The notes under the pieces are model-generated. The model was given only the letters and a program-made list of their open reading frames with translations, was not told the DNA's origin and ran no database searches. Both the position numbers and the translations under genes were made by a program. DNA of 64,000 nucleotides from an uncultured Hyphomicrobiales bacterium. Its GTDB lineage: Bacteria > Pseudomonadota > Alphaproteobacteria > Reyranellales > JAQSWP01. Where the stretch lies: assembly GCA_964458605.1 (NCBI GenBank), contig CAYWLS010000008.1:73190-137189 (forward strand), in the 5' to 3' direction. This document shows positions 1,068 to 18,859 of the stretch, piece by piece (within the stretch, counting starts at the first letter, position 1; each line of letters starts with the position of its first letter).

Positions 1068-1294
1068 GACCCATTTCCCCTTTGCTCTTGCAGACGCCGC
1101 CGTCTCGTGGCGCGGCGATGTTCGGCCATCGATCCCAACGTCACAATAGAAATCCCGAGAACGATCGGTCAGGCAATGGAAATCCGGCGGCAGAGGCCGT
1201 GCAAGGCGATGGCCAGGCCCGGATTGGCAGGACACTGCATATCTTTTGCGGAATGGATCGTCCCGCCGGCCTTGGACCGGGGACAGCCTTGCCG

Positions 1295-2110
1295 CTACAT
1301 CGTCTCCCCATGGGCGACCGAGATCGCCTGCCCGGTAATCGCCTGCGCGGCAGGCGATGCCAGCCATAGCACGGTCGCCGCCACGTCGGCAGGCTCGACC
1401 AGCCTGCCGGCCGGATTGACCGCCGCAAGCTCCGCCTTGATCTGCGCCGCATCGCGCCCGGTGCGCCGGGTCAGATCCTCGACCGCCGCCGCCAGCAATG
1501 GTGTATCGGTATAGCCAGGACAGACCGCGTTGACCGTCACGCCGCTGCGCACCACCTCCAGGGCAAGCGCGCGGGTAAATCCCAGCACCGCATGCTTGGT
1601 GGCGCAATAGCCGCTGGCATAGGCATAGCCGCGCAAGGCGGCGGTCGAGGCGATGTTGACGATGCGGCCATGCCGGCGCTCGATCATGGCGGGCAGGACG
1701 CGCTGGGTGCAGGCCACGACCTGTACCAGGTTGACTTCCAGCATCTGGCGCAGCGCTTCGGATGACAGACGAGACCATGGCGCCGTGACGGCGCGGCCCG
1801 CATTGTTGACCAGCACGTCGACGTCGCCCTGCCGCCGCCTGGCTTCGGCAAAAGCGCGATCGGCCGATTCGGCCTCGGTGAGATCGGCGGCAATCCAGTC
1901 GACGGCCGCGTTGGCGGACCGGAGCGCGTCGGCGCGCTCGCGCAGCACGTCGGCGCGGCGGCCGACAATGGTGATCCGCGCGCCTGCCGCGGCAAAGGCC
2001 TGCGCGATGGCCGCGCCTATTCCCGTACCGCCGCCGGTGATCAGAACGTGCCGGCCGGCCGCTGCCTCGCCGGTCCGCGCCACGCCATTCGATCGGAAAT
2101 CGCCGGACAT
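1295..2110 (-). CDS. SDR family oxidoreductase (hydroxyacyl-CoA dehydrogenase-like)
   Basis: TGGGTGIG, NNAG and YCATK motifs; start uncertain (ATG 2110 chosen). Confidence 0.9.
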   Translation of the reverse strand: MSGDFRSNGVARTGEAAAGRHVLITGGGTGIGAAIAQAFAAAGARITIVGRRADVLRERADALRSANAAVDWIAADLTEAESADRAFAEARRRQGDVDVLVNNAGRAVTAPWSRLSSEALRQMLEVNLVQVVACTQRVLPAMIERRHGRIVNIASTAALRGYAYASGYCATKHAVLGFTRALALEVVRSGVTVNAVCPGYTDTPLLAAAVEDLTRRTGRDAAQIKAELAAVNPAGRLVEPADVAATVLWLASPAAQAITGQAISVAHGETM

Positions 2111-2115
2111 CGGCG

Positions 2116-2532
2116 CTAAGGCGACCCCGCCGGGCGAAACTTCGGCAAAGGCACCTCGCCCGCCGCGTCGTCGAACATGACCTCGACCGGCATGTCGGCC
2201 GTCACGGCTTCGGGCGCGCAGCCGATCACGTTGGACACCAGCCGAACCCCTTCCTCGAGTTCGATCAGCGCCACGACATAGGGCACCTCGCCGGCGTATG
2301 CATCGGCAGGCACGGGATGGCGCACGACGATCCAGCTGAACACCCGGCCGCGTCCGGAGGCATCGATCCAGTCGTGATCGCCGGCGCCGCAGGCGGAACA
2401 GGTCGGCCCGGGCGGGAAGCGCGTGCGGCCGCATTGGGTGCAGCGCTGCACGATCAGCCGATGCTCGCGGCAGGCCTGCCAGAACGGCGTCGAGTCGGGA
2501 TCGAGCGCAGGGCGCGGTTTGAGCTGGGCCAT
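2116..2532 (-). CDS. DUF35 Zn-ribbon/OB-fold protein (ChsH2 C-terminal-like)
   Basis: C-terminal part of ORF 2116..3372 from MAQLKPRP; CxxC...CxxC (CTQC, CSAC), GRGRVFSWIVV, PYVVALIELEEGVRL. Confidence 0.92.
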   Translation of the reverse strand: MAQLKPRPALDPDSTPFWQACREHRLIVQRCTQCGRTRFPPGPTCSACGAGDHDWIDASGRGRVFSWIVVRHPVPADAYAGEVPYVVALIELEEGVRLVSNVIGCAPEAVTADMPVEVMFDDAAGEVPLPKFRPAGSP

Positions 2533-2534
2533 CG

Positions 2535-3692
2535 CTACCTCCGCAACACCATGGCGCTGCCGCAGGTCATGGCGCCTGCCGTGGTTAGCGCGATCTCCGC
2601 GCCGGGCACCTGGCGCGGGCCGGCGGCGCCGCGCAGTTGCTCGACTGCTTCCAGCACGTGATTGAAGCCGTGGATGTAGGCCTCCGACAGCAGACCGCCA
2701 TGCGTATTGACGGGCATCTTGCCGCCACGGTCGATCGCGCCGGAGGCGACGAACGGACCGCCCTCGCCTTCGGCGCAGAAGCCGAGCCCTTCGAGCTGCA
2801 TCACCACGCTGTAGGTGAAGCAGTCGTAGATCTCGGCCAGGTCGATGTCCTGCGGGCCGATGCCGGCGCTGCCCCACAGATCGTCGGCGATGTAGTGGGC
2901 ATAGTTGCGCACATGATCGGGCCAGCGGATCGCATCGAACAGATCGTCGCCCTGGTTGGGTCCGCCGCCATAGGCGCCGCCCATGATGTAGACCGGGGGA
3001 TGCGGCAGGTCGCGCGCCCGCTCCGCCGACGTCACCACCACGGCACAGGCGCCGTCGCTTTCCAGGCAGATGTCGTAGAGCCGGAACGGGTCGACGATCG
3101 GACGGCTGTTGAAGTAGTCGTCCATGCTCAACTTCTTGCGCTGCATGGCGCGTGGATTGGCCTCGGCATTGGCGCGCTGCATGACCGCGACATGGCCGAG
3201 CTGTTCGGCGGCGGTGCCGTATTTCACCATGTGCCGGCGGCACCACATTGCCATGGCCTGGGGATAGGTGATCCAGCCGAACGGCGCGGTGTACTGGGTG
3301 ATGCCGCGCGCATCGAAATCGCGACCGCCGCCCAGGCGATAGCCGGAGCGGCCGTTCATGGCGCGATAGCACACCACCGTCTTGGCCAACCCCGCTTCGA
3401 TCGCCGCGGCCGCCGCCAGCACGATCAGATTGGCGCCGTTGCCGCCGGCGGCGTAATCGACGGCGTAGCCGACATTGGGGATGCCCAGATTGGTGGCGAC
3501 CGCGATGCCGGGCACCGAGTCGTTGAACTGGAACGATACCAGCCCGTCGATATCCGATCGCGCCAGCCCGGCATCGGCAATGGCGCTGCCCGCCGCTTCG
3601 GTGGCCAGATCCAGAACCGTGCGGTTGGATTGCTTGGTATAGGCGGTGGCGCCTATGCCGCAGATCGCGTAGCGGTCGCGTAGCCGGTACAT
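2535..3692 (-). CDS. Thiolase-fold protein, Ltp2/SCP-x-like (probable acyl-CoA aldolase)
   Basis: AICGIG start, EIYDCFT, NTHGGLLSEAYIHG; no Cys at the canonical thiolase nucleophile position (DYAAGGNGAN); adjacent to DUF35. Confidence 0.88.
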   Translation of the reverse strand: MYRLRDRYAICGIGATAYTKQSNRTVLDLATEAAGSAIADAGLARSDIDGLVSFQFNDSVPGIAVATNLGIPNVGYAVDYAAGGNGANLIVLAAAAAIEAGLAKTVVCYRAMNGRSGYRLGGGRDFDARGITQYTAPFGWITYPQAMAMWCRRHMVKYGTAAEQLGHVAVMQRANAEANPRAMQRKKLSMDDYFNSRPIVDPFRLYDICLESDGACAVVVTSAERARDLPHPPVYIMGGAYGGGPNQGDDLFDAIRWPDHVRNYAHYIADDLWGSAGIGPQDIDLAEIYDCFTYSVVMQLEGLGFCAEGEGGPFVASGAIDRGGKMPVNTHGGLLSEAYIHGFNHVLEAVEQLRGAAGPRQVPGAEIALTTAGAMTCGSAMVLRR

Positions 3693-3699
3693 CTTCGCC

Positions 3700-4509
3700 T
3701 CATCGTCCTTCGAATGCGGGATCGCGCTTTTCGCGAAACGCCATCAGCCCTTCCATGGCGTCGTGCGAGCGCGTGGCGTAGCCATGCACCCGCTCGATCT
3801 CCATGCGCAGCGCCGCGTGTAGCGGCAAGGCCATGCCGTCGTCGACCAGACGCTTGGCCATCGCCAGGCCCAGGGCGCTTTTGCCGGACATCTCCCCGGC
3901 CAGCGCCAGCACCGTCGCCATCAGCTCGGCGCGCGGTACCGCCAGGCTGGCCAGGCCCAGGCGCTCGGCCTCGACCCCGTCGATGCCGCGCCCCGTGAGA
4001 ATGAGGTACTTGGCACGCAGCGCGCCGATCGCTCGCGGCAGGCGCTGCGAGCCGCCGGCGCCGGGCAATTGTCCGAAATTGAGATGGCCATCGGCGATCC
4101 GCGCCTCGCGCGCCGCCACCACCACGTCGCAGGCCAGCGCCAGTTCCAGCCCGCCGGCGACGCAATGGCCGTTGACCGCCGCGATGAAGATGCATGCGGA
4201 GCGCTCGATCGTGTCGAGCAGGATGAAGAAATCGTCGAGGAACGCCTGGAAGTCGGCCGGGCGGCGATAAAGGCCGATATAGCCCTCGAGGTCGCCGCCG
4301 GCGGAGAACGCCTTGCCCGCCCCCGTGATAACGACGAGGCGGCATTGCGGATCGGCCTCGGCCCGATGCACCGCCGCCGTCAGTGCCTTCACCGAGTGCC
4401 AGTCCAGGGGATTGAGCTTGTCGGGACGATTGAGCGTCAGGATGCGCGTATTGCCTTGCGCCTCGTACAGAACGCGCTCCGCCTCCAGATTGTCGGCTTC
4501 CCTCTCCAT
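3700..4509 (-). CDS. Enoyl-CoA hydratase/isomerase (crotonase) family
   Basis: LNRPDKLN, FSAGGDL, AVNGHCVAGGLELALACD; start set at MEREAD because the longer ORF runs into the operator region. Confidence 0.92.
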   Translation of the reverse strand: MEREADNLEAERVLYEAQGNTRILTLNRPDKLNPLDWHSVKALTAAVHRAEADPQCRLVVITGAGKAFSAGGDLEGYIGLYRRPADFQAFLDDFFILLDTIERSACIFIAAVNGHCVAGGLELALACDVVVAAREARIADGHLNFGQLPGAGGSQRLPRAIGALRAKYLILTGRGIDGVEAERLGLASLAVPRAELMATVLALAGEMSGKSALGLAMAKRLVDDGMALPLHAALRMEIERVHGYATRSHDAMEGLMAFREKRDPAFEGR

Positions 4510-4532
4510 CGGTCCACCGTAGCAGAATGTCC

Positions 4533-4547
4533 GATTGTCCGACAATC
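4533..4547. promoter_or_regulatory. Palindrome GATTGTC-C-GACAATC, putative FadR/GntR operator
   Basis: Perfect 7-bp inverted repeat in the AT-rich gap between the divergent crotonase and FadR genes; fits the TGT-N-ACA style of FadR-subfamily sites. Confidence 0.7.
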
Positions 4548-4600
4548 AATATTTTGCTATACAATTCATTAAGTTGATTCACGCAGCCAGGAAGTTGGAA

Positions 4601-5347
4601 ATGGCCCGTTCTGCCAATGCCGCAGCCGCCGCGCGGTTCGACCGGTTGCACCCGGTTCCCGCCTACCGGCTGGTCGCCAAGGCGATCCAGGACCGGATCG
4701 AAACCAGCCGCCTGCAGCCGGGCGATTGGCTGCCCACCGAAACGACCTTGGCCGAGCAGTTCGGCGTCAATCGCTCGACCATTCGCGAAGGCATTCGCCT
4801 GCTGGAGCAATCGGGTCTGCTCGACCGCGACGGCAAACGCCTGATCGTCACGCTGCCGCACTATATGGACCTTGCTTCGCGCGCCTCCCGAGCGCTGGTC
4901 ATGCACCAGGTGACGTTCCGCGAATTGTGGGAAGCCTCGATGGCCAGCGAACCGCTGATCGCCGCGCTGGCGGCCGAACGTGCCGATGCCGCCGCGCTGA
5001 GCGCGATGGAGCGCAATATCGCCGCAGCGGCCGCCGCGACCGACCGGCTGGACGATTTCATCGACCTCGACATCGCCTTCCACGAGCTGGTCGCCCGGGC
5101 GGCCGGCAATCGCGTGCTGATGCTGGCGCGCGAGCCGATCGGCCTGCTGTTCAAGCCGGCCGGCGAGACCATCCTGCCCCGCCTGGGCACGCATGGGCGG
5201 GTGGTCGACGCCCATCGCCAGATCCTGGCGGCGATCGGACGCGGCGACCGCACCGAAGCGCAACGCTGGATGGATCGCCACATGGCCGATTTCCGGCGCG
5301 GCTACGAGGCCGCCGGCGCCGATCTCGACAGCCCGCTCTACGGCTGA
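4601..5347 (+). CDS. GntR/FadR family transcriptional regulator (wHTH + FCD)
   Basis: LPTETTLAEQFGVNRSTIREGIRLLEQSGL helix-turn-helix; DIAFHELV and HRQILAAI FCD motifs. Confidence 0.93.
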   Translation: MARSANAAAAARFDRLHPVPAYRLVAKAIQDRIETSRLQPGDWLPTETTLAEQFGVNRSTIREGIRLLEQSGLLDRDGKRLIVTLPHYMDLASRASRALVMHQVTFRELWEASMASEPLIAALAAERADAAALSAMERNIAAAAAATDRLDDFIDLDIAFHELVARAAGNRVLMLAREPIGLLFKPAGETILPRLGTHGRVVDAHRQILAAIGRGDRTEAQRWMDRHMADFRRGYEAAGADLDSPLYG

Positions 5348-5416
5348 CCCCGCCCCCGCCTCGCCCGGATCGCAGCCCGGCACGGCTGCCGCGGCCGTCG
5401 CCTTGCCGGTCGCCGG

Positions 5417-5434
5417 TTAATGCTTTGACATTAA
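5417..5434. promoter_or_regulatory. TTAATG-ctttga-CATTAA operator-like palindrome overlapping TTGACA (-35)
   Basis: Read directly; TTGACA at 5425-5430; lies upstream of the badI-like gene; two more copies at 12092 and 12192. Confidence 0.75.
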
Positions 5435-5533
5435 TAATCTCATGTGCTGTCATTTTGCGCTGCCGTCCCCGCTGCCGCGCCAACGGCACGGATCGCGGAC
5501 GGCTTCATCGGCGAGCACTGGGCGCGAGGGGAC

Positions 5534-6337
5534 ATGACCTACCAGGACATTCTCTACCAAGAGCATGGTGGGGTGGCGCGCATCACCATCAACCGTCCCG
5601 ATCTCTACAATGCCATGCGCGCCCGCACCGTCGAGGAGCTGATCGAGGCATTCCAGGTGGCTGGATGGAAGCGCGAAATCGGCGTGATCGTGCTGACCGG
5701 CGCGGGCGATCGGGCGTTCTGCACCGGCGGCGACCAGTCTTCCCATGACGGCGGCTATGGCGGACGCGGCACGATCGGCCTGCCGATCGAGGAATTGCAG
5801 AGCATCATCCGCGACGTCCCCAAGCCGGTCATTGCCCGGGTCAACGGCTTCGCCATCGGCGGCGGCAACGTGCTCGCCACCCTGTGCGATCTCACCATCG
5901 CCGCCGATACCGCCCAGTTCGGGCAGGTCGGTCCCAAGGTCGGCTCGGTCGATCCGGGATTCGGCACCGCCTATCTGGCCCGCGTGGTCGGCGAAAAGCG
6001 CGCCCGGGAGATCTGGTATCTGTGCCGGCGCTACAGCGCCGAACAGGCCATGTCGTTCGGCCTGGTCAACGCGGTCGTGCCCGCGGCCGAACTCGATGCC
6101 GAGGTCGATCGCTGGTGCGCCGAGCTGATGGAACGCAGCCCGACCGCGCTGGCCATCGCCAAGCGCTCGTTCAATGCCGACACCGAGAGCATCCGCGGCC
6201 TGTCCAGCATGGGAATGGCCGCACTCGCCCTCTACTACGACACCGAGGAATCGAAGGAAGGCGGCCGCGCCTTCCGCGAAAAACGGAAGCCGAACTTCCG
6301 CAATCCGCCAGGCAGGAAAGGCTCTGGCGACAAATAG
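5534..6337 (+). CDS. badI: 2-ketocyclohexanecarboxyl-CoA hydrolase-like ring-opening crotonase (BadI/MenB clade)
   Basis: GDRAFCTGGDQS.HDG.Y.GRGT.GLP.EEL...IRDVPKPVIARV, SVDPGFGTA.LARVVGEK.AREIWY, ERSPTALAIAKRSFN and LYYDTEES closely match my recollection of Rhodopseudomonas palustris BadI. Confidence 0.82.
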   Translation: MTYQDILYQEHGGVARITINRPDLYNAMRARTVEELIEAFQVAGWKREIGVIVLTGAGDRAFCTGGDQSSHDGGYGGRGTIGLPIEELQSIIRDVPKPVIARVNGFAIGGGNVLATLCDLTIAADTAQFGQVGPKVGSVDPGFGTAYLARVVGEKRAREIWYLCRRYSAEQAMSFGLVNAVVPAAELDAEVDRWCAELMERSPTALAIAKRSFNADTESIRGLSSMGMAALALYYDTEESKEGGRAFREKRKPNFRNPPGRKGSGDK

Positions 6338-6354
6338 GAACAGGGAGGATCATC

Positions 6355-7386
6355 ATGAACAATAGCCGGTCGAGGCGGACGGCGTCGCCGCCGCACATGT
6401 CGATTTCCCGCCGCACGGCGCTGGGCGCCCTGTCGGCGCTGACCGCCGGTGGCGCGGTCATGCTGTCGGGTCTGGCACGCGCCGAAGATGCCTATCCCAA
6501 CAAGCCGGTGCGCATCGTGGTGCCGTTCGGCGCCGGCGGCGTAGCCGATGTCATCGTGCGTATCGTCGCCGACAAGCTGAGCGAATCGATGGGCCAGCGC
6601 TATTTCGTGGAGAATCGGCCCGGCGCAGGCGGCAGCATCGGCACCGATGTGGTGGCCCACGCCCCAGCCGACGGCTACACCATGGTGCTGGGCAGCCCGA
6701 GCTTGACGGTCAATCCCAGCCTGCAGAAGTCGCTTGGCTGGGATCCGATCAAGGATTTCGCGCCGGTCAGCATGCTGGCGACCTTCCCCAACATCATCTG
6801 CGCCAAGAAGGACCTCCCGGTAAAGGACATGAAGGAGTTGGTCGAGCTGGCGCGTTCCCAGCCCGGCAACATCACCTTCGGTTCGGTCGGCGTGGGCACC
6901 TCGATGCATCTGATCGGCGAGACGATCAATTCGCACGCCAAGGTCAAGATGACGCACGTGGCCTACAAGACGCAGGGCGACGCCATACAGGACCTGACGC
7001 GCGGCAATATCTCCTGGATGGCCTTGTCGGTGACCCTGGCCAAGCCGCTGATCGCCCAGGGCACCGTCAAGGCCTTGGCGGTCACCTCGGCCGAACGCTT
7101 CAAAGCCGTGCCGGAAATTCCCACCGTCGTGGAACAAGGCTTTCCCGACCTGGTGGTCGAGGCCTGGCTGGCGCTCTACATGCCGGCCAAGACGCCCGAC
7201 GCCATCGTGCAACGCACCAACAAGGCGATCGAGGCGGCGCTCAAGAGTCCCGACGTGGTGGCCAAGCTGGACAATTTCGGCGCCGTGCCGGCGCCCGACT
7301 CCAGCCAGCAACTGGCAACATTCACCAAGGACGAAGTGGAGCGATGGGCCAAGGTGGTCAAGGACGCCAATATCCAGCCGCAATGA
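6355..7386 (+). CDS. tctC: Bug/TctC tripartite tricarboxylate transporter substrate-binding protein with Tat-like signal
   Basis: SRRTAL twin-Arg signal; YPNKPVRIVVPFGAGG, VENRPGAGG, PTVVEQGFP; alternative start at 6397. Confidence 0.92.
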   Translation: MNNSRSRRTASPPHMSISRRTALGALSALTAGGAVMLSGLARAEDAYPNKPVRIVVPFGAGGVADVIVRIVADKLSESMGQRYFVENRPGAGGSIGTDVVAHAPADGYTMVLGSPSLTVNPSLQKSLGWDPIKDFAPVSMLATFPNIICAKKDLPVKDMKELVELARSQPGNITFGSVGVGTSMHLIGETINSHAKVKMTHVAYKTQGDAIQDLTRGNISWMALSVTLAKPLIAQGTVKALAVTSAERFKAVPEIPTVVEQGFPDLVVEAWLALYMPAKTPDAIVQRTNKAIEAALKSPDVVAKLDNFGAVPAPDSSQQLATFTKDEVERWAKVVKDANIQPQ

Positions 7387-8708
7387 ACTTTGGCCGTGGG
7401 ACCAGCATGAACGACCTGTTTGCCGCATCCGACAGCATCATGCGCGGGGAGCTGACGACCGCGCAGTGGTTCCGCACGGTGCCGCGCTGCCAGTTGACCG
7501 AGATGACGGCCGATAGCGCCGTGGTGGTATGCCGCGGCCTGTCGGCCAATGTCACGGTGTTGCGCACGCCCGAAGGGCTGCTGTTGGCCGATACCGGCGC
7601 GGTCGACACCGGCGGCGCCATCTTCGACGCCATTCGCGCCTGGGAGCCCGATCGGCCGGTCAGCACCATCGTCTATACCCACGGCCATTTCGACCATTGC
7701 AACGGCACCGTGCTGTACGACCAGGAGGCGGCGCAACGCGGCTGGAAGGCACCTACCGTGATCGCCCATGCCGACCTGCGCCGCCGCTTCGCCCGCTACG
7801 AGCGCACCAGCCCGCTCAACGCCGCCATCAACAAGCGCCAGTACAGCCGGCCCGATTTCCAGTGGCCGACGCGCTATCGCTATCCCGACCGCATATTTCA
7901 CGACGAGCTGGCCTTCTCGCTGGGAGGCGAGGATTTCCACCTGTTCCACGGTCGCGGCGAGACCGACGACCATGCCTGGCTGTGGGCGCCGCAGCGCAAG
8001 CTGGCGGTGGCCGGCGATTTCGTGATGTGGGCTGCGCCCAATGCCGGCAATCCGCAAAAGGCGCAGCGCTACGCCGCGGACTGGGCGGTCGCGCTGCGCG
8101 CCATGGCGGCGCACGAACCGGAAATCCTGATACCGGGCCACGGCCCGCCGATCCAGGGCGTGGCCACCATCGCCCACTATCTCGACGGCGCGGCACGCTG
8201 GCTGGAGCATTTGCACGACCGGACCGTCGATCTGCTCAATCAGGGTTTTCGCGTCGACGAGATCGTGCAACGCGTGCGCGTGCCGGCCGAGCTGGCAGCA
8301 CAGCCCTGGCTGCAGCCCACCTACGACGATCCCGAGTTCGTGGTGCGCAATGTCTGCCGTCTCTATGGCGGATGGTGGGACGGCAACCCCGCCCATCTGA
8401 AGCCGGCGTTGGAAGACGAACTGGCGCGGTCCCTGGCCGCCCTGGCCGGATCTCCGGCCGCCATCGCCAGCCATGCCGAGAAGCACCTGGCGGCAGGCGA
8501 TTTGCGCGTCGCCAGCCATCTGGCCGAATGGGCCGCGCTGGCCGCGCCCGACGATGCCTACGTGCAGTCGGTTCGTGCCACGGTCAACGAGCGGCGCGCC
8601 GAGGCCGAGCCCTCGCAGATGGCCAAGGGCATTTTCGGCGCCGCCGCGCGCGATGCGCGCTCGCGCATGGCCATGGCCGCCAAGGCCGGGCAGCGCGGCT
8701 CGGCGTAA
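7383..8708 (+). CDS. Metallo-beta-lactamase-fold alkyl-sulfatase-like hydrolase (SdsA/BDS1 type III family, no SCP2 domain)
   Basis: THGHFDH, GETDDH, AGDF, PNAGNPQK, PGHG and YGGWWDGNP motifs; ATGA overlap with the tctC stop (alternative start 7407). Confidence 0.82.
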   Translation: MNFGRGTSMNDLFAASDSIMRGELTTAQWFRTVPRCQLTEMTADSAVVVCRGLSANVTVLRTPEGLLLADTGAVDTGGAIFDAIRAWEPDRPVSTIVYTHGHFDHCNGTVLYDQEAAQRGWKAPTVIAHADLRRRFARYERTSPLNAAINKRQYSRPDFQWPTRYRYPDRIFHDELAFSLGGEDFHLFHGRGETDDHAWLWAPQRKLAVAGDFVMWAAPNAGNPQKAQRYAADWAVALRAMAAHEPEILIPGHGPPIQGVATIAHYLDGAARWLEHLHDRTVDLLNQGFRVDEIVQRVRVPAELAAQPWLQPTYDDPEFVVRNVCRLYGGWWDGNPAHLKPALEDELARSLAALAGSPAAIASHAEKHLAAGDLRVASHLAEWAALAAPDDAYVQSVRATVNERRAEAEPSQMAKGIFGAAARDARSRMAMAAKAGQRGSA

Positions 8709-8720
8709 ACCGGCGGCGCC

Positions 8721-10841
8721 TCAGCCGCGGCGGTCGGTCTCGATCACGGCATCGACCGCCAGCGCACCGCTTCCTTCGGGGAATACCAGGAACGGATTGG
8801 CCTCGACGCTCAGGATGGCGTCGGCATTGGCCGCCGCCGCGCGCGACAGCGCGCTCAGCGCCCGGGCCAGCGCTTCCTTGTCGGCGGGCGGCGCGCCACG
8901 GGCGCCGTCGAGGATGCGGGCGCCGCGGATCTCGCCGATCATGCGCCGCGCCTCGTCGATGCCGAACGGAGCGATCCGGAAGCTGACATCCTTCAGGATC
9001 TCGACGAACACGCCACCCAGGCCGAACATCACCACCGGGCCGAAGCTGGGGTCGCGCACCACGCCCAGGATGCACTCGACCCCGCCCTTCAGCATCGGCG
9101 CCACCAGGCAGCCGCGAATGGCGGCATCGGGCAGCCGCGCGCGGACGGCGGTCACGATTTCATCGTAAGCGGCCCCGACGGCTTGGGCATCGGCGAGATT
9201 CAGCTTCACCCCGCCGACATCGGATTTGTGCAGCAATCCGCTGGCCACGATCTTGACCACCGCCGGATAGCCCAGCCGGTCGGCCGCCGCGATCGCCGCC
9301 GCGCGCGAGGTCGCCAGCGCATGCTCGACCACCGGCACGCCAGCCGCGTCGAGCCACGCCAGCGCTTCCGGCTCGTCCAGGACAGCCGGTAACGCAACGG
9401 TCGCGCCCGCCCGCGGCCGGGCCTCTTCGGCCTGGACGAAGGACCGAGCAAAGAAGCGCAGCGCAGCCATGGTGCGGATCGCATGGGTGGGCTCGCGATA
9501 GGCCGGAATGCCCATGGCTTCGAACACCCGCTGGCATTCGGTCGACATGAAGCCGGACACCATGAACGGCCGGTCGGGATAGCGCGCCAGCAATTCGCGC
9601 CACACCGGCAGATGCGGCTCGATCGCCTCCGGCGTGCGATAGAGCCCGCCCTGGTAGGCGACGATGCCGGCATAGTCGGCGCCCTCCATGATCAGCCGCA
9701 TGGCGCGGCCGAACAGCGGCGGATCGTTGATCACATAGCCGGTGAGGTCGAGCGGATTCTCGACGCCGGCGATCGGCACCATCTGCTTCATCGCGCGCTT
9801 GGCCGCGTCGGGCAACTGCGTCACCGCCAAGCCGGCCTCGACCGCCGTGTCGGCCAGCAGCACGCCGACGCCGCCCGACACCGTGACGATCCCCAGGCTG
9901 TCGTTGCGCGGCAGCGGCGCGATCGCCGCGGCGCAGCCGACATCGAAGAACTCCTCGATCGAGTTGGCGCGATAGACGCCGTACTGGCGGAACATCGCGT
10001 CGTAGACGTCGTCGGCGCCGGCCAGCGCCGCCGAATGCGATTGGGCGGCGCGCGCGCCGGCCTCGGTACGCCCCAGCTTGACCATCACCACCGGCTTGCG
10101 CCGGCGACGCGCCAGCGCCAGCGCCTCGAGCATGCGCGGGCCGTGGCGGCAGGTTTCGATGTAGCAGAGAATCACTTTCGTGTTGTCGTCCTCGGCCAGG
10201 AAGGCGATGCATTCGGCGATCTCGATATCGGCTTCGTTGCCAGTGGCGATGACGTAGCTGAACGACACGCCGCGTTCCTTGGCCATCAGGCTCGACATGC
10301 CGGCAAAGGCGCCGCTCTGGGTGACCAGGCCGATGCGGCCATCGGCCGGCATGGAATCGGGAAAGGCGGGATGGAAGCTGGCCACCAGGCCGCGGTCGAA
10401 ATCGGCAAAGCCGACGCTGTTGGGCCCCAGCACGCGGATGCCCCGCTCGCGGGCCAGCGCCGCCAGCTCGGCCTGGCGCGTCGCGCCCTCGGCATCGACC
10501 TCGGCAAAGCCGCCGGCGAACACCACCACGCCGGCAACGCCCTTGTCGGCGCAGCGGCGCACCACATCGTTGACCTGCTCGGCCGACACCGAGCAGATCG
10601 CCAGGTCGATCGGCGCGTCGATATCGGCGATATCGCGATAGGCGCGCAGACCCTGAATGGCTTCGGCGCGCAGGTTGACCGGGTAGATTTCGCCGGAGAA
10701 TCCGTATTTGCGCATCAGCGCGATCGGCCGGCCGCCGACCCGCGCCGCATCGGCCGAGGCGCCGATCACCGCGACGCGCCGGGCATTGAGGATGCGGCGC
10801 AACGAGGCGGTGTCGATCGAGCTGGAAGCGGCGTCGCGCAT
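8721..10841 (-). CDS. Acetate-CoA ligase family (ADP-forming acyl-CoA synthetase, fused alpha-beta)
   Basis: VAVIGAS, RVLGPNSVG, SQSG-like TQSGA, GNEAD, SHSAALAG, LHKSDVGGV, FGPVVMFGLGG. Confidence 0.93.
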   Translation of the reverse strand: MRDAASSSIDTASLRRILNARRVAVIGASADAARVGGRPIALMRKYGFSGEIYPVNLRAEAIQGLRAYRDIADIDAPIDLAICSVSAEQVNDVVRRCADKGVAGVVVFAGGFAEVDAEGATRQAELAALARERGIRVLGPNSVGFADFDRGLVASFHPAFPDSMPADGRIGLVTQSGAFAGMSSLMAKERGVSFSYVIATGNEADIEIAECIAFLAEDDNTKVILCYIETCRHGPRMLEALALARRRRKPVVMVKLGRTEAGARAAQSHSAALAGADDVYDAMFRQYGVYRANSIEEFFDVGCAAAIAPLPRNDSLGIVTVSGGVGVLLADTAVEAGLAVTQLPDAAKRAMKQMVPIAGVENPLDLTGYVINDPPLFGRAMRLIMEGADYAGIVAYQGGLYRTPEAIEPHLPVWRELLARYPDRPFMVSGFMSTECQRVFEAMGIPAYREPTHAIRTMAALRFFARSFVQAEEARPRAGATVALPAVLDEPEALAWLDAAGVPVVEHALATSRAAAIAAADRLGYPAVVKIVASGLLHKSDVGGVKLNLADAQAVGAAYDEIVTAVRARLPDAAIRGCLVAPMLKGGVECILGVVRDPSFGPVVMFGLGGVFVEILKDVSFRIAPFGIDEARRMIGEIRGARILDGARGAPPADKEALARALSALSRAAAANADAILSVEANPFLVFPEGSGALAVDAVIETDRRG

Positions 10842-10843
10842 CG

Positions 10844-12013
10844 CTATTTTCCCTTGCGGCCCTTGGCCTGAAGCATCTCGCGCGCGATGGTCAGCAGATG
10901 GATCTGGCTGGTGCCCTCCGCCATGCGACCGCCCCGCACGTCGCGATAGAGCAGTTCGGCGCCGGAATAGTCGGCGATATAGCCGCGGGCGCCGAAGATC
11001 TGCACCACACGGTCGGCGACCCGACACACCATTTCAGTGGCGAAGTACTTGGCGATCGAGGCCGCCATGGTGACGTCCTCGCCGGCATCGTACTTGCGCG
11101 CCGTCTCCAGCAGCAATGCGCGCGCGGCTTGGATATCGACCTGGCATTCCGCCAGCATGGCCTGGACCAGCTGATGGCTGCCGATCGGCGCGCGACCGTT
11201 GCGCTCGCCGCGCGCGAAATCCAATGCCAGCTCGACCATCCGCATGGCCGGCCCCACGCTCAAGCCCGACAGGTTGATGCGCTGGAACAGGAAGCCGCGC
11301 ATCAGGCTCTCGAAGCCGTGCCCCGGCTCGTTGCCCAGCATGGCGTCGGCGGGCACGCGGCAGTTGCGCACATGCACCTCGGACATCGGCATGCCGTGCT
11401 GGCCCATCTTGCGGTATGGCTTGCCGATCTCCAGCCCTTCCATGCCGGGCTTGAGCAGAAAGGTGGTGATGCCCCCCAGGCCGCCGGCATCGTTTTCGGT
11501 GCGGGCGTACATCAGGATGACATCGGCGACCGGCGCCAGCGAGACATAGCATTTGGCGCCGTTCAGCACCCAGCCATTGCCGTCGCGCACCGCCCGCGTC
11601 CGCATCTTGGTGGCCTGCGAACCGCCGATGTCCAGCTCGGACACGGCGAAGGCCGGTATCACCTCGCCGCTGGCGATTTTCGGCAGATAATAGCGCTTCT
11701 GCTGTTCGGTGCCTTCGACCGCGAACGGCACCACGCCGATGCCGATGTTGTTCGACAGCCGGGTGCGGAACGACAGCGAGCACTGCGACACTTCCATGTT
11801 GATATGGGCCAGCTCCTCGCAGGTCATGCCCCAGCCGCCATATTCCTCCGGCACGCCGAAAGCGAACAGGCCGCGATCGCGCATCTCCTGCACCACCGCC
11901 GCCGGCAGCGCGCCGGCGCGATCGACCTCCGGTTCGAGCGGCTGCCAGCTATTGCGCACCACGTCGCGCACGATGGCGATGGCCTTGTCCAGACGCTGCT
12001 GGTCGCGAATCAT
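10844..12013 (-). CDS. Acyl-CoA dehydrogenase
   Basis: VPEEYGG, LNGAKCY, KMG, ASIAKYFATE, YRDVR...EGTSQI (catalytic Glu position retained). Confidence 0.93.
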   Translation of the reverse strand: MIRDQQRLDKAIAIVRDVVRNSWQPLEPEVDRAGALPAAVVQEMRDRGLFAFGVPEEYGGWGMTCEELAHINMEVSQCSLSFRTRLSNNIGIGVVPFAVEGTEQQKRYYLPKIASGEVIPAFAVSELDIGGSQATKMRTRAVRDGNGWVLNGAKCYVSLAPVADVILMYARTENDAGGLGGITTFLLKPGMEGLEIGKPYRKMGQHGMPMSEVHVRNCRVPADAMLGNEPGHGFESLMRGFLFQRINLSGLSVGPAMRMVELALDFARGERNGRAPIGSHQLVQAMLAECQVDIQAARALLLETARKYDAGEDVTMAASIAKYFATEMVCRVADRVVQIFGARGYIADYSGAELLYRDVRGGRMAEGTSQIHLLTIAREMLQAKGRKGK

Positions 12014-12091
12014 CGTCTTCCCCCGAACCTCGTTGCCGGCTGTGCGCAACGCGGCGCCGCCGATTTTAGTCAATGAACCCACATCGTTTTT

Positions 12092-12109
12092 TTAATGTCA
12101 ATCCATTAC
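12092..12109. promoter_or_regulatory. TTAATG-tcaatc-CATTAC operator-like site (one mismatch) containing TTGACA on the minus strand
   Basis: Read directly, upstream of the acyl-CoA dehydrogenase/CoA ligase operon; minus-strand TTGACA at 12101-12096. Confidence 0.7.
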
Positions 12110-12191
12110 TTTGTCATGCAGTACGGCTGGCCGCTGGATCGCTGGCGATCGGAGCGCGCCCGGGCCAGCCAGCGATCGGCGCTGCGACAAA

Positions 12192-12209
12192 TTAATGTTT
12201 TGGCATTAA
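12192..12209. promoter_or_regulatory. TTAATG-ttttgg-CATTAA operator-like palindrome upstream of the TetR gene
   Basis: Read directly; TTGGCA at 12200-12205 and TATACT at 12221-12226 form a promoter-like pair with a short 15-bp spacer. Confidence 0.72.
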
Positions 12210-12258
12210 ATCGAGCCGCCTATACTCTCATGGCGGCGGGCCTAGCGAGGGGAGCGTC

Positions 12259-13026
12259 ATGACCAGGACGGCGAAGCGACCATCGACCCGACAAAGGGCC
12301 GCGCCCGAAGCGGCGCGGCGCGGCGACACGCGCATGCGGCTGATCGAGACGGCCGAGAAGCTGGTCGCCCAGCACGGCATCGACGGCATCACCGCCAAGC
12401 AGATCATCCAGGCGGCAGGCGTGCGCAACGAATCGGCGTTGCAGTACCATTTCGGCAGCCGCAGCGCGCTGATCGATGCGATCTTCGAGTTGCGCATGTC
12501 GCCGATCAACGCGCACCGGCTGGACATGCTGGCCGAGCTCGATAGCCGCGGCAGCCCGCCGACGATCCGCGACATCGTTCGCGTGTTGGTGTTGCCGCTG
12601 GCGCAAAGCCTGATCTCGAGCCGCCGCAAGAGCTATTACTGCCGCTTCCTCGAGCGCGCGCAAAGCTCGCCCGAGCATGTCAACAACCTGATCCAGCGGC
12701 GGCACTATTCGAGCGTATTGGGCTGCGCCGCGCATTTCCGCTATCTCTGCGCCAACCTGCCTCATGCCGTGACCAACCAACGCCTGTCCATCGCCCTCAA
12801 GACGCTGGGCCAGGGCGCGGCCGACATCGAGCGCCGGCTGTCGGACCCCGCCCAGGCGGTCAGCCGCGAACAGATCGAGGCCGAGATCGGCAATCTGACC
12901 GACTGCATCGTGGGAATCATGTCGGCGGAGGTGGTCGACGGCAAGGCGATGGCGGCGCACAAGACGGCAAGACCGACGGCGACGCCGGATGGCGCCGCCA
13001 GGAGGATTCGCCAGCCTTCCCGATAG
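12259..13026 (+). CDS. TetR/AcrR family transcriptional regulator
   Basis: LIETAEKLVAQHGIDGITAKQIIQAAGVRNESALQYHFGSR N-terminal HTH. Confidence 0.92.
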   Translation: MTRTAKRPSTRQRAAPEAARRGDTRMRLIETAEKLVAQHGIDGITAKQIIQAAGVRNESALQYHFGSRSALIDAIFELRMSPINAHRLDMLAELDSRGSPPTIRDIVRVLVLPLAQSLISSRRKSYYCRFLERAQSSPEHVNNLIQRRHYSSVLGCAAHFRYLCANLPHAVTNQRLSIALKTLGQGAADIERRLSDPAQAVSREQIEAEIGNLTDCIVGIMSAEVVDGKAMAAHKTARPTATPDGAARRIRQPSR

Positions 13027-13064
13027 CGACGCCACGGCGAAAACAGACAGAGGGAACCTGTCGC

Positions 13065-13538
13065 ATGCCGAATTTCATCGAACGCAGACGCGATTTCTAT
13101 GCCGGCGCGCTGATGGCGCTGATCGGCATCGCCGCCGTCGCGATCGGCCAGCAATACGGAATCGGATCGCTCACGGCGATGAAACCGGGGTTCTTTCCCG
13201 TCGCTGTCGGTGCGCTGCTGGTCCTGGTCGGCATCGCCATCGCCGTCGTCGGCGGGCGCGGCGAGGAGCCGGACGCGGCGCACGCCGCAGTACCGCCCTG
13301 GGACTGGCGCGGAGGTTGCTGCATCCTCGCCGGCACGGTCAGCTTCATCGTGCTGGGCCGGTATCTGGGAATGGTACCCGCCACCTTCGCCTGCGTGTTG
13401 GTTTCGGCGCTGGGCGACCGCAAGATGGCGGTCGCCAATGCGGTGGTCCTTGCCATCGCCATCGCCGGATTCGGGGTCGTGCTGTTCCATTACCAACTGA
13501 AGATTCCCTTCCCGCTGTTTCGCTGGGGCACGTCATGA
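13065..13538 (+). CDS. tctB: Tripartite tricarboxylate transporter TctB
   Basis: Four hydrophobic segments, MKPGFFP motif, ATGA overlap with tctA. Confidence 0.9.
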   Translation: MPNFIERRRDFYAGALMALIGIAAVAIGQQYGIGSLTAMKPGFFPVAVGALLVLVGIAIAVVGGRGEEPDAAHAAVPPWDWRGGCCILAGTVSFIVLGRYLGMVPATFACVLVSALGDRKMAVANAVVLAIAIAGFGVVLFHYQLKIPFPLFRWGTS

Positions 13539-15031
13539 TCGACACCGCGCTGACCGACCTGTGGCGCGGCTTCGAGGTCGCGCTCGACGGCACCAACGTC
13601 AAATGGTGCTTCGTCGGCGTGATGATCGGCAACATGGTGGGCGTCCTGCCCGGCATCGGCGTCATGGCGGCGGTCTCGATCCTGCTGCCGCTGACGTTCG
13701 GCATGCCGCCGGTCGCCGCCCTGCTGATGCTGGCCGGCATCTACTACGGCGCCCAATATGGCGGGGCGATCTGCTCGATCATCCTCAATCTGCCCTGCCA
13801 TCCGCCGCATGCGGTGACCTGCCTCGACGGCTATCCCTTGACCATGCAAGGCCGCGGCGGCGTGGCGCTGTTCATCACCATGCTGTCGTCCTTCGTCGGC
13901 GCCTCCTTCGGCATCACGGTGATGATCTTCTTCGCGCCGGTGCTGGTGAAGCTGGCGCTGGAATTCGCCGATGTCGAGGTCTGCGCGCTGATGCTGCTGG
14001 GGATGCTGGCAGGCTCGACCCTGGCGCGCGGCTCGGCGCTGAAGGGTGTGGCGATGACCCTGCTCGGATTGCTGCTGGGCATGGTCGGCACCGACGTCAA
14101 TACCGGCTTGCACCGCTTCACCTTCGGCGAGAGCAAGCTCTACGACGGCATCGAGATCGTCGCCTTGGCGCTGGGACTGTTCGGCATCGCCGAGTTCCTC
14201 AAGAGCGTCAACGCCGTCAATCCGCTCAATGCCGCCCTGACGCGCATCCGCATGCGCGACATGTGGCCCAGTCGGACGGATCTGAAGCAGGCCGCTTTCC
14301 CGATGATGCGCGGCACCCTGATCGGCAGCCTGTGCGCGCTGATCCCCGGCACCGGACCGACCATCGCCTCGTTCATCTCCTACGGCTTCGAAAAGCGCAT
14401 CTCGCGCACGCCCGAACGCTTCGGCACCGGAGCCATCGCCGGCGTCGCCAGCCCCGAGGCCTCGACCCACTCCTCCGTGCAGGGCGATTTCATCCCGACC
14501 ATGTGCCTGGGCATTCCAGGCGATGCGGTGATGGCGCTGATGCTGGGCGCTCTGCTGATCCAGGGCATCACCCCCGGTCCGCAGCTGATCACCGAACACC
14601 CCGACCTGTTCTGGGGGCTGATCGCCAGCTTCTGGGTGGGCAACATCATGCTGGTGATCCTGAACGTGCCGATGATCGGCCTTTGGGTGAAGCTGCTGGA
14701 AATCCCCTATCGGTATCTCTATCCCAGCGCGCTGTTCTTCATCTGCATCGGCGTGTACAGCGCCAACAACGATCTGTTCCTGGTCAAGGAGGCCCTGGTG
14801 ATCGGGGTGATCGGCTACATCCTGCTTCGCCTGGGCTTCCATCCCGCGCCCGTATTGTTGGGCTTCGTTTTGGGCTCGCGCTTCGAAGAGGGATTTCGCC
14901 GCTCCATGCTGTTCTCGCATGGCGACTTGATGGTCTATTTGACCCACCCGGTCAGCGCCGGCTTCCTGGGATTGGCAGTCGGACTGATCGGCATTCAGGT
15001 CTATAGCGCCGCCAGGCGGCGCCGGCGCTAG
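13535..15031 (+). CDS. tctA: Tripartite tricarboxylate transporter TctA permease
   Basis: GVLPGIG, GIYYGAQYGG, DGYPLTMQGRGG, RFTFG, GIPGDAVMALMLGAL. Confidence 0.95.
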   Translation: MIDTALTDLWRGFEVALDGTNVKWCFVGVMIGNMVGVLPGIGVMAAVSILLPLTFGMPPVAALLMLAGIYYGAQYGGAICSIILNLPCHPPHAVTCLDGYPLTMQGRGGVALFITMLSSFVGASFGITVMIFFAPVLVKLALEFADVEVCALMLLGMLAGSTLARGSALKGVAMTLLGLLLGMVGTDVNTGLHRFTFGESKLYDGIEIVALALGLFGIAEFLKSVNAVNPLNAALTRIRMRDMWPSRTDLKQAAFPMMRGTLIGSLCALIPGTGPTIASFISYGFEKRISRTPERFGTGAIAGVASPEASTHSSVQGDFIPTMCLGIPGDAVMALMLGALLIQGITPGPQLITEHPDLFWGLIASFWVGNIMLVILNVPMIGLWVKLLEIPYRYLYPSALFFICIGVYSANNDLFLVKEALVIGVIGYILLRLGFHPAPVLLGFVLGSRFEEGFRRSMLFSHGDLMVYLTHPVSAGFLGLAVGLIGIQVYSAARRRRR

Positions 15032-15119
15032 GGCGTCGCCAGACGGGCCCGCCGCACGGTCGGCCCCGGCTCGCTTGGCCTTGAGCGCGCGCCTTCTCAG
15101 GAGGCCGGTTTCTAAACTC

Positions 15120-15139
15120 TGCGACCAGCGTGCGACCAG
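15120..15139. repeat. Tandem 9-bp direct repeat TGCGACCAG x2 (11-bp period), integrase arm-site-like
   Basis: Copies at 15120-15128 and 15131-15139, about 26 bp beyond the tRNA-Lys CCA end. Confidence 0.55.
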
Positions 15140-15165
15140 TAAAGCGACGCCGATCGGCTAAGTGT

Positions 15166-15240
15166 TGGTGAGCGCGGAGGGGATCGAACCCTCGACCCTC
15201 TGATTAAAAGTCAGATGCTCTACCGCTGAGCTACGCGCTC
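15166..15240 (-). tRNA. tRNA-Lys (anticodon TTT), CCA encoded
   Basis: Folds as a cloverleaf: acceptor GAGCGCG/CGCGCTC+ACCA, anticodon arm TCTGA-CTTTTAA-TCAGA, T-loop TTCGATC. Confidence 0.97.
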
Positions 15241-15294
15241 CAATCCTGTCGATCCGCCCCTGCAAATCCACATCGGGCCGATCGCGGCGGCCTC

Positions 15295-15323
15295 GGTATA
15301 GGCCGTCATGTCCGTACGGTCAA
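15295..15323 (-). promoter_or_regulatory. Sigma70-type promoter for tRNA-Lys (TTGACC-N17-TATACC)
   Basis: Minus-strand hexamers at 15323-15318 and 15300-15295 with an exact 17-bp spacer. Confidence 0.7.
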
Positions 15324-15362
15324 TCGCCAGAAATCCCCCGCCGGACCGCCGGCGGCGCACCC

Positions 15363-15887
15363 TCAATTGGTTCTGGCCAGATTGAGTTCGTTGAACTTGG
15401 CCGTGAGCCGGGCATGCACGCGCTTCGACACGAAATGCGACACGTCCCCGCCCAGCCGGCCGATATCCTTGACCAGGCTGGAAGCGATGAACTGGTGCCG
15501 CTCGGAGGCCATCAGGAACACCGTCTCGATGTCCGGCTTCAGCTTGGCGTTCATGCTGGCCATCTGGATTTCGTATTCGAAGTCGGACACGGCGCGCAGG
15601 CCACGGAAAATCACGTTGGCGTTCATGGCATGGGCGAAGTCGACCAGCAGGCCCTGGAACGGCTCGACCGTGACACGCTGGCCCAGCCCGTCCGGCATGG
15701 CGGCGATATCCTCGCGCAGGATCTCGACCCGCTCCTCGACGGTGAACAGCGGGCCTTTGCCGATATTGATCGCCGGCCCCACCACCAGATTGTCGACCAG
15801 CCGCGCCGCGCGGCGGATGATCTCGGAATGGCCGTTGGTGATTGGATCGAACGTGCCGGGGTAGACCCCGATGCGATGCTGCGCCAT
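15363..15887 (-). CDS. coaD: Pantetheine-phosphate adenylyltransferase
   Basis: YPGTFDPITNGH, RGLRAVSDFEYE, IASSLVK. Confidence 0.98.
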   Translation of the reverse strand: MAQHRIGVYPGTFDPITNGHSEIIRRAARLVDNLVVGPAINIGKGPLFTVEERVEILREDIAAMPDGLGQRVTVEPFQGLLVDFAHAMNANVIFRGLRAVSDFEYEIQMASMNAKLKPDIETVFLMASERHQFIASSLVKDIGRLGGDVSHFVSKRVHARLTAKFNELNLARTN

Positions 15888-16012
15888 GACAACTCCCCCA
15901 ACGCTTCCGGCGACCCTGCCGCCAACCCCCGTCCGCGGCGGTTAGACTCTTACCGCGCCTCGACCGGGCTTGGCCATGCGTATTTGCCGGGCGCCGATGG
16001 AGCAAGACCGGC

Positions 16013-18859
<2,847 letters not shown>

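Follow-up and report, generated by a model that had tools for sequence, protein, structure and literature searches.

A palindromic candidate operator shared by three promoters around a TetR-family regulator gene in an uncultured alphaproteobacterium

Classical TetR-type local repressors, such as TetR, QacR, AcrR, TtgR and CprB, are proteins of ~200-250 amino acids (aa) with an N-terminal helix-turn-helix (PF00440) and an all-helical ligand domain. Their palindromic operators overlap the promoter of their own gene and those of a neighbouring operon for transport or catabolism, and a second dimer may bind nearby. Several members of the family, including the FadR proteins of Bacillus and Thermus, DesT, PaaR and KstR2, repress CoA-dependent catabolism and are released by CoA thioesters, and the fatty-acid-responsive PsrA of Pseudomonas controls beta-oxidation genes together with its own promoter. 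Here, we analyzed a window of 64,000 nucleotides (nt) of contig CAYWLS010000008.1, which belongs to an uncultured Hyphomicrobiales bacterium (Alphaproteobacteria). This window contains a tetR gene among genes for a transporter and for CoA-dependent enzymes, and an 18-bp palindrome, TTAATG-N6-CATTAA, that occurs three times around them. A first-pass annotation, made from the sequence alone, had proposed that the adjacent TetR protein uses the palindrome as its operator and that the copies define its regulon.

We consider it quite likely that TTAATG-N6-CATTAA is the operator of the TetR protein encoded at 12259-13026, and that this protein is a local repressor whose binding sites overlap promoters. 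The proposal of the first-pass annotation is supported by two lines of comparison: conservation of the sites in orthologous clusters, and a family-wide association of the same half-site with the regulator gene. The sites, their positions, orientation and conservation, as well as their exclusive association with this TetR lineage, were observed directly in the genomes.

The palindrome and its copies in orthologous clusters

A search of the whole window with TTAATGNNNNNNCATTAA, allowing up to two mismatches, returned exactly three matches (sites 1-3, Table 1). The chance expectation from 100 dinucleotide shuffles of the window was 0.16 matches, and none of the shuffles reached three. No additional site appeared in the window when up to three mismatches were allowed, and a search for sites with a 5-nt spacer (N5) found none there. 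The coordinates and sequences given in the first-pass annotation were accurate, including the single mismatch of site 2, and its remark that such AT-rich words are scarce in this DNA is right, as the G+C content of the window is 63-73%. All three palindromes are intergenic and lie 50-100 bp 5' of the first start codon of a transcription unit; written in a single orientation (site 2 from the minus strand), they yield the consensus kTAATGnnTTGrCATTAA.

Each palindrome also contains a -35-like hexamer, which occupies positions 9-14 (spacer plus right arm) and always faces the downstream unit. The hexamers had been noted before, and both their sequences (TTGACA twice and TTGGCA once) and their direction toward the genes were confirmed. 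The earlier view was that two convergent operons are coordinated in this way. Their placement downstream of the sites holds true; their number does not, since there are three units: badI-like gene, tctC and metallo-beta-lactamase (MBL)-fold hydrolase gene behind site 1 (+), acyl-CoA dehydrogenase (ACAD) and ADP-forming acyl-CoA synthetase genes behind site 2 (-), and tetR, tctB and tctA behind site 3 (+). Unit 3 thus includes the membrane subunits of the tripartite tricarboxylate-type (TTT) transporter whose periplasmic component, TctC, is encoded in unit 1. In the DNA between sites 2 and 3, a G+C-rich inverted repeat was also observed at 12130-12180, with 17-nt arms that are 76% complementary and a perfect 10-nt core (GATCGCTGGC/GCCAGCGATC).

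Among 5.8 billion proteins, three close homologues of the TetR protein were detected (89, 65 and 63% identity), the next ones being at 35-39%. The contig of the 63% homologue (L010, also numbered L001) carries a syntenic cluster, in the order crotonase (-); tctC and MBL hydrolase (+); acyl-CoA synthetase and ACAD (-); CoA-transferase, tctA and tctB (-); tetR and short-chain dehydrogenase/reductase (SDR) (+). It has three perfect palindromes and none other in 18.5 kb: before tctC (at 883), before the ACAD gene (at 6645) and between tctB and tetR. Perfect copies were present at the three equivalent places in a Reyranellaceae metagenome-assembled genome (MAG; L008), at 895 and 6646 for the first two. 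Three shorter contigs (L003, L004 and L009) have copies as far as they reach, perfect ones in the tctB/tetR intergenic region and, in L009, also before the ACAD gene (at 115). Conservation upstream of orthologues, which the first-pass annotation had suggested as a check, is therefore seen at the same three promoters.

When these regions were aligned on the sites, the 18-mers were conserved while the flanking intergenic DNA had diverged and was not alignable, the TetR proteins being 63-65% identical. The hexamer TTGACA is present in all nine orthologous sites, and in 11 of 12 when the three sites of the window are counted, site 3 with its TTGGCA being the exception. The identities of the other orthologous proteins were 69-72% for TctC, 73% for the MBL hydrolase and 76-80% for ACAD. 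In L008-L010 the site in the tctB/tetR intergenic region faces tctB and not tetR. This fits the arrangement in the window, where tetR now precedes tctBA and site 3 would drive all three genes.

Neither the badI-like gene nor the GntR gene of the window has a counterpart in the L008 and L010 clusters; both genes are additions in the lineage of the window. In L008 and L010 (800-1100) the operator-like site lies directly between the crotonase gene (-) and tctC, and in the window (4601-6337) the GntR and BadI-like genes are inserted on either side of it. From this gene order, the crotonase operon appears to have moved from TetR to GntR control.

The TetR protein and the half-site of its relatives

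The protein encoded at 12259-13026 matches PF00440 over residues 28-75 (31.2 bits vs a cut-off of 24). Its AlphaFold2 model (mean pLDDT 81) has 11 helices and the all-helical TetR fold, and every one of the top 50 Foldseek matches listed from the PDB was a TetR-family-type regulator. The nearest solved structures were PsrA (PA3006; 2fbq, first match with a TM of 0.75, profile E-value 5e-20, 24% identity), followed by NicR2 (5fgl). Orthology with PsrA was rejected, as the score for NCBIfam NF053516 was 42.6 bits against an equivalog cut-off of 300. No TetR paralogue was found in the window.

A scan of GTDB with one genome per species, using an alignment of the TetR protein and its homologues, gave 238 confirmed relatives, and 80 loci (L008-L087) were kept; these were retrieved with a peptide pattern from the recognition helix and are consequently enriched for proteins expected to share a half-site. 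A scan of metagenome contigs with the single TetR protein yielded one irrelevant relative at 28%. For each of the 80 loci, the upstream zone was defined as -450 to +30 of the regulator gene (480 bp, 37.7 kb in total), with 1.29 Mb in the rest. Allowing one mismatch, TTAATG-N6-CATTAA had 22 matches in the upstream zones (0.58 per kb) vs five elsewhere (0.004 per kb), all five of the latter being the sites at the tctC and ACAD promoters of the orthologous clusters in L008-L010. Binding by a global regulator had been named earlier as an outcome that would refute the operator claim; the motif is instead tied to the regulator gene and to its target promoters.

A perfect TAATG-N5-CATTA or TAATG-N6-CATTA was present upstream of the regulator in 64 of the 80 loci. 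When all 5+5 palindromes in the upstream zones were counted de novo, TAATG-N5-CATTA was the most frequent (53 loci), with TAATG-N6-CATTA in third place (11 loci), and the second-ranked TTAAT-N8-ATTAA (12 loci) is the N6 motif shifted one base outward. As an internal control for base composition, spacers of 3, 4, 7, 8 and 9 nt were searched in the same zones and had no match at all. The arms TAATG and CATTA are invariant among the distant relatives, and their spacers are unrelated to TTGACA (e.g., TCTAGT, TGATCC and AAGTCG).

These comparisons also bear on the possibility that the palindrome is no protein operator, being an AT-rich framework around a -35 element, or a chance or repeat sequence. 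It is true that the spacer and arm (TTGACATTAA) can pass for a -35 hexamer followed by A/T-rich DNA, and that every copy is located in intergenic DNA, which is more AT-rich than genes. However, the left arm would serve no purpose in a sigma-70 promoter, and a promoter framework would account neither for arms that stay invariant while the spacers lose any likeness to TTGACA nor for the occurrence of two spacer lengths but none of the five control lengths. Together with the excess of copies in the window over the chance expectation, this makes such an explanation extremely improbable.

The genes next to the regulators of these relatives include those for a sulfatase with a TRAP transporter, a TauD-type dioxygenase with a BCCT transporter, ACAD with a TRAP transporter, an ADP-forming acyl-CoA synthetase, an amidase with a porin, and Omp85/TamB. 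Since these contexts differ widely, the TetR gene is the only constant partner of the motif. The hosts belong to Alpha-, Beta- and Gammaproteobacteria and also comprise actinobacterial MAGs (L081 and L082); examples are Endozoicomonas (L056) and Variovorax (L018 and L040, spacer 5). The recognition-helix region (R/G)N(E/A)SAL(Q/H)YHFG is conserved throughout the family, the same peptide having served as the search pattern. In a neighbour-joining tree, N6 sites were found in the part containing the clade of the window and N5 dominated a large Parvibaculum clade; agreement between spacing class and protein tree is only rough. We examined the Q/H residue of the recognition helix as a possible determinant of spacing and rejected it, as the separation was not clean (N6: Q 8, H 4; N5: H 47, Q 6).

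Another regulator might occupy the sites, and two candidates were considered. The first is the GntR/FCD protein of the window, whose gene ends 70 bp ahead of site 1. This candidate was rejected: the L008 and L010 clusters lack the GntR gene yet possess all three perfect sites, and the GntR gene has a palindrome of its own. The latter, ATTGTCCGACAAT at 4534-4546, is perfect, has no second copy in the window and conforms to the usual GntR/FadR type. It is located in the 90 bp that separate the crotonase-thiolase-SDR operon (start ~4510, -) from the GntR/FCD gene (start 4601), and is probably the GntR operator. The second candidate is a global factor such as CtrA, an alphaproteobacterial regulator whose box is TTAA-N7-TTAA. 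The motif indeed has two TTAA elements that resemble CtrA half-sites, a likeness that had been pointed out together with the different spacing; by our measurement they are 10 nt apart in all three sites vs 7 nt in the CtrA box. In addition, the motif accompanies the TetR gene into Endozoicomonas, Variovorax and the actinobacterial MAGs, where CtrA does not occur. CtrA was rejected on both grounds, and we regard any binder other than the TetR protein as very improbable.

Promoter geometry and proposed mechanism

In the mechanism that we propose, a TetR dimer would sit on each of the three strong sites (O1), each of which covers the -35 hexamer of its promoter. P1 would serve the badI-like gene, tctC and the MBL hydrolase gene, P2 the ACAD and ADP-forming acyl-CoA synthetase genes, and P3 tetR, tctB and tctA. 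P1 and P2 have, in addition, a weaker site (O2) over the -10 region, 22 bp downstream or about two helical turns away, where another dimer might bind on the same DNA face. Bound repressor would block RNA polymerase, and binding of the transported carboxylic acid, or of a CoA ester derived from it, to the C-terminal domain would release the repressor and allow joint transcription of the genes for uptake, for CoA-dependent catabolism and for the repressor itself. We infer the physical binding, repression as the direction of control, cooperativity between O1 and O2 and the inducer; of these, an acyl-CoA intermediate as the inducer, as the first-pass annotation had it, is purely conjectural.

The weak second sites are degenerate, with an ATG-N6-CAT or ATG-N6-CGT core and two to three mismatches in the 10 core positions, and lie exactly 22 bp past O1 at the tctC and ACAD promoters in all four genomes of the close clade. 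The offset of the P1 O2 is likewise +22 in L008 and L010, at two of 10 core mismatches as in the window, and the P2 O2 occurs in L008, L009 and L010 at the identical offset with two of 10 core mismatches. The background rate of such weak matches in these loci is 8e-4 per position. The tetR/tctB promoter has no O2 site. In distant members, too, tandem operator pairs 21-23 bp apart are frequent (23 bp in L011, 22 bp twice in L024, 21 bp in L033), where pairs at 14 and 31 bp are present as well. This geometry suggests two dimers on one DNA face at P1 and P2. The arrangement is different in L043 (9851-9882) and L031 (7486-7517), where two operator-like sequences, offset by 14 bp, overlap and have CATTAATG in common, unlike the tandem pairs at 21-23 bp.

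Several observations weigh against the proposed model, or limit the evidence for it. A scan of 4400-5600 and 11900-12400 with an E. coli-type sigma-70 consensus found no complete promoter, and no -10 element near TATAAT was located 16-18 nt after the -35 hexamer at any of the three sites. The best -10 candidates, TGTCAT and GTTCAT (each at 17 nt) and TATACT (at 15 nt), match poorly, and it is here that the promoter-occlusion part of the model is weakest. Because there is no good -10 box, promoters were assigned solely from the -35 hexamers and the direction in which they point. The O2 sites, degenerate as they are, could be no more than part of the -10/start region. Furthermore, 16 of the 80 loci lack a perfect site in a sample already enriched by its search pattern, the close clade consists of four independent genomes only, and the DNA of the window was traced to metagenome DNA runs from wastewater, sludge and soil and to no RNA run. 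A terminator scan around the sites found nothing, and an Rfam scan of 1-16000 found no RNA element in the leaders, the sole match being a tRNA.

The absence of an acceptable -10 hexamer 16-18 nt from each -35 hexamer could also be read the other way, with the TetR protein binding the palindrome as an activator that recruits RNA polymerase to promoters with a good -35 and a poor -10 element. Some TetR-family proteins do activate, such as PsrA at rpoS (PMC13104628). On the other hand, a dimer on this site, the centre of which is the -35 hexamer, would be in competition with sigma region 4, and the weak O2 sites lie over the -10 region. The regulator's own unit has the same site, which is the usual layout of negative autoregulation. 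Degenerate -10 boxes are, moreover, frequent in Alphaproteobacteria. Activation thus seems improbable to us, and repression is retained as the proposed direction of control.

Gene content, inducer and comparison with known systems

The gene map (Table 1) is based on third-position G+C, Pfam, NCBIfam, inspection of start codons and the gene calls on the identical public contig. The previous gene assignments were borne out by Pfam/NCBIfam and by the gene starts, except that "sulfatase" is a weak label for 7383-8708, whose product is truncated and only distantly related to the MBL-type alkyl sulfatases. A 680-aa open reading frame (ORF) at 12989-15031, which could be taken for a fused TctB/TctA, was rejected as an artefact of an open frame upstream, since tctB is in another frame and tctA starts at 13535. 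The SDR ORF at 1295-2434 exceeds its SDR domain, found from about residue 126 onward, by ~120 codons; the real start of this gene is probably well 3' of the first start codon. An SDR orthologue directly follows tetR in L009 as it does in L010.

Table 1. Candidate operators, promoter elements and genes of the analyzed region (positions in the window)
Feature	Position	Strand	Sequence or evidence
Site 1	5417-5434	+	TTAATGCTTTGACATTAA; 0 mismatches
-35-like hexamer inside site 1, directed to unit 1	5425-5430	+	TTGACA
Candidate -10 (poor)	5448-5453		TGTCAT
O2 of P1 (weak second site)	5439-5456	+	CTCATGTGCTGTCATTTT; ATG-N6-CAT core; 22 bp past O1; 2/10 core mismatches; over expected -10 region
Site 2	12092-12109	-	written TTAATGTCAATCCATTAC, minus strand GTAATGGATTGACATTAA; 1 mismatch
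-35-like hexamer inside site 2, directed to unit 2	12096-12101	-	TTGACA
O2 of P2 (weak second site)	12070-12087	-	ACGATGTGGGTTCATTGA; 22 bp promoter-downstream of O1; 3/10 core mismatches
Site 3	12192-12209	+	TTAATGTTTTGGCATTAA; 0 mismatches
-35-like hexamer inside site 3, directed to unit 3	12200-12205	+	TTGGCA
Candidate -10 (poor), past TTGGCA of site 3	12221-12226		TATACT
SDR	1295-2434	-	
SCP-x/lipid-transfer-type thiolase	2535-3692	-	
Crotonase	3700-4510	-	
GntR/FCD regulator	4601-5347	+	
badI-like crotonase (ECH_1), first in unit 1	5534-6337	+	best match TIGR03210 BadI, 455.8 bits vs cut-off 467.6
tctC, periplasmic binding protein of TTT transporter	6355-7386	+	PF03401, 242 bits; GGGAGG before start codon
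MBL-fold hydrolase with alkyl-sulfatase dimerisation domain	7383-8708	+	PF00753, PF14863; 441 aa
ADP-forming (NDP-forming) acyl-CoA synthetase, second in unit 2	8721-10841	-	CoA_binding_2, Succ_CoA_lig, ATP-grasp_5
ACAD, first in unit 2	10844-12013	-	several equivalog models matched, all far under cut-off
tetR	12259-13026	+	PF00440; 255 aa
tctB, small TTT membrane subunit	13065-13538	+	PF07331; gene call on identical contig
tctA, large TTT membrane subunit	13535-15031	+	PF01970, 480 bits
tRNA-Lys (anticodon TTT), between tctA and coaD	15166-15240	-	
coaD	15363-15887	-	
gyrA	16013-18859	-	

The conserved core of the cluster comprises tctABC, the MBL hydrolase, the ADP-forming acyl-CoA synthetase (which matches the 4-hydroxybutyrate-CoA ligase 8wzu at 9e-108), ACAD, crotonase and SDR, with a family III CoA-transferase in addition in the orthologues. 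The cluster is predicted to take up a carboxylic acid, activate it with CoA and process it in a sequence of steps resembling beta-oxidation. In the window, the BadI-like ring-opening hydrolase and the presumably GntR-controlled crotonase-thiolase-SDR operon would suit an alicyclic acid, and the BadI-like hydrolase, ACAD, crotonases and SDR together could run a cyclohexanecarboxylate-like route. NCBIfam did not name the pathway: ACAD, SDR and the crotonases were far under every equivalog cut-off, and BadI alone came close.

With regard to the inducer, the gene contexts of the relatives point in two directions, each weakly. The relatives next to sulfatase/TRAP and TauD/BCCT pairs without CoA enzymes argue for a free substrate, and those with ACAD and synthetase neighbours argue for a CoA ester. 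In the N6 part of the family, the regulators adjoin genes for a formylglycine sulfatase (L005/L011, 7534-9792; L024, 7479-9812) or a TauD-family dioxygenase (L031, 6384-7460; L033, 8647-9885), and the window has the MBL alkyl-sulfatase-like protein. Between them, these enzymes represent all three mechanistic classes related to sulfatases, and every one of them occurs together with a transporter for carboxylates or betaines. A speculative and rather unlikely reading is that the regulators belong to a TetR subfamily that is large (238 species-level genomes or more in the scan) and undescribed, that all its members read the half-site TAATG with a spacing, N5 or N6, that differs by one base pair between clades, and that the N6 members are organosulfate-responsive repressors. 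If this were true, the cluster in the window would import and desulfate a sulfated carboxylic acid and then beta-oxidise it. The association with sulfatase classes may be coincidence, as other relatives adjoin ACAD, amidase or Omp85 genes.

For an uncultured wastewater alphaproteobacterium, these results propose a regulatory unit of one repressor, three promoters and an 18-bp operator that would link a TTT transporter to CoA-dependent enzymes; finding the inducer of the TetR protein would therefore name the substrate of the pathway. The TAATG-N5/6-CATTA rule allows prediction of operators and local regulons in about 64 of the 80 sampled species, many of which are Parvibaculum and related degraders of hydrocarbons or surfactants. 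The N5 and N6 classes also form a natural pair in which to examine how TetR dimers adjust when the distance between half-sites changes by one base.

Compared with the classical TetR repressors, the locus differs in its putative operator, which has TAATG arms, a 6-nt spacer and a length of 18 bp, and in that one regulator would act on three promoters with the -35 hexamer built into each operator spacer. We found no matching operator in the literature, in agreement with the first-pass annotation, which had not recognised it; the literature search covered the motif strings, PF17939/TetR_C_30, and TetR regulators with TTT and ACAD operons. PsrA is the closest solved structure, but its operator, C/GAAAC-N2-4-GTTTG/C (PMC13104628), is unrelated to TAATG-N6-CATTA. 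NicR2, a local repressor of nicotine catabolism in Pseudomonas putida S16 and the second-closest structure, shares ~21% identity with the TetR protein; it belongs to another pathway and is released by a pathway intermediate that is no CoA ester. The acyl-CoA-sensing regulators, whose release by CoA thioesters is the logic that had been proposed for this locus, are remote fold matches only (13-18% identity; Bacillus halodurans FadR 5gpc and DesT with palmitoyl-CoA 3lsj at ranks 38 and 50), and the relatives of the TetR protein also adjoin gene pairs without CoA enzymes. Several of these relatives have a precomputed PF17939 label. One characterised protein with this TetR_C_30 label was found in the literature, EppR of Acinetobacter baumannii, which binds AT-rich AAATTTAAATTGAATTTAAA-type repeats, controls error-prone polymerase genes and is autoregulated via two sites in its own promoter (PMC12242105); both its motif and its biology are different.

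The cluster had also been framed in terms of the bad/ali clusters, which in Rhodopseudomonas palustris are under the MarR-type BadR. The window resembles them in having a BadI-like hydrolase, ACAD, crotonases and an SDR. However, its regulators are of the TetR and GntR types, its ligase is ADP-forming and not of the AMP-forming AliA type, and the AliB and BadH equivalogs were not reached (ACAD 155-217 bits vs cut-offs of 575-650; SDR 170 vs 431). Because the orthologous clusters lack the badI-like gene, as well as the GntR gene, we judge that the cluster is not bad/ali in origin, and the earlier framing is weak. Similarly, the class III alkyl sulfatases of the MBL type (SdsA1, Pisa1 and YjcS) are proteins of ~630-670 aa with an MBL, a dimerisation and an SCP2-like C-terminal domain, whereas the shorter MBL protein of the window has no Alkyl_sulf_C (SCP2-like) domain and matches them at 1e-19 to 1e-21 over part of the chain. 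The general understanding of how TetR repressors act is unchanged by these findings. What is new is this particular pair of regulator and putative operator, together with the TAATG-N5/6-CATTA rule, whereas the kind of system, a local TetR repressor, is already well known.

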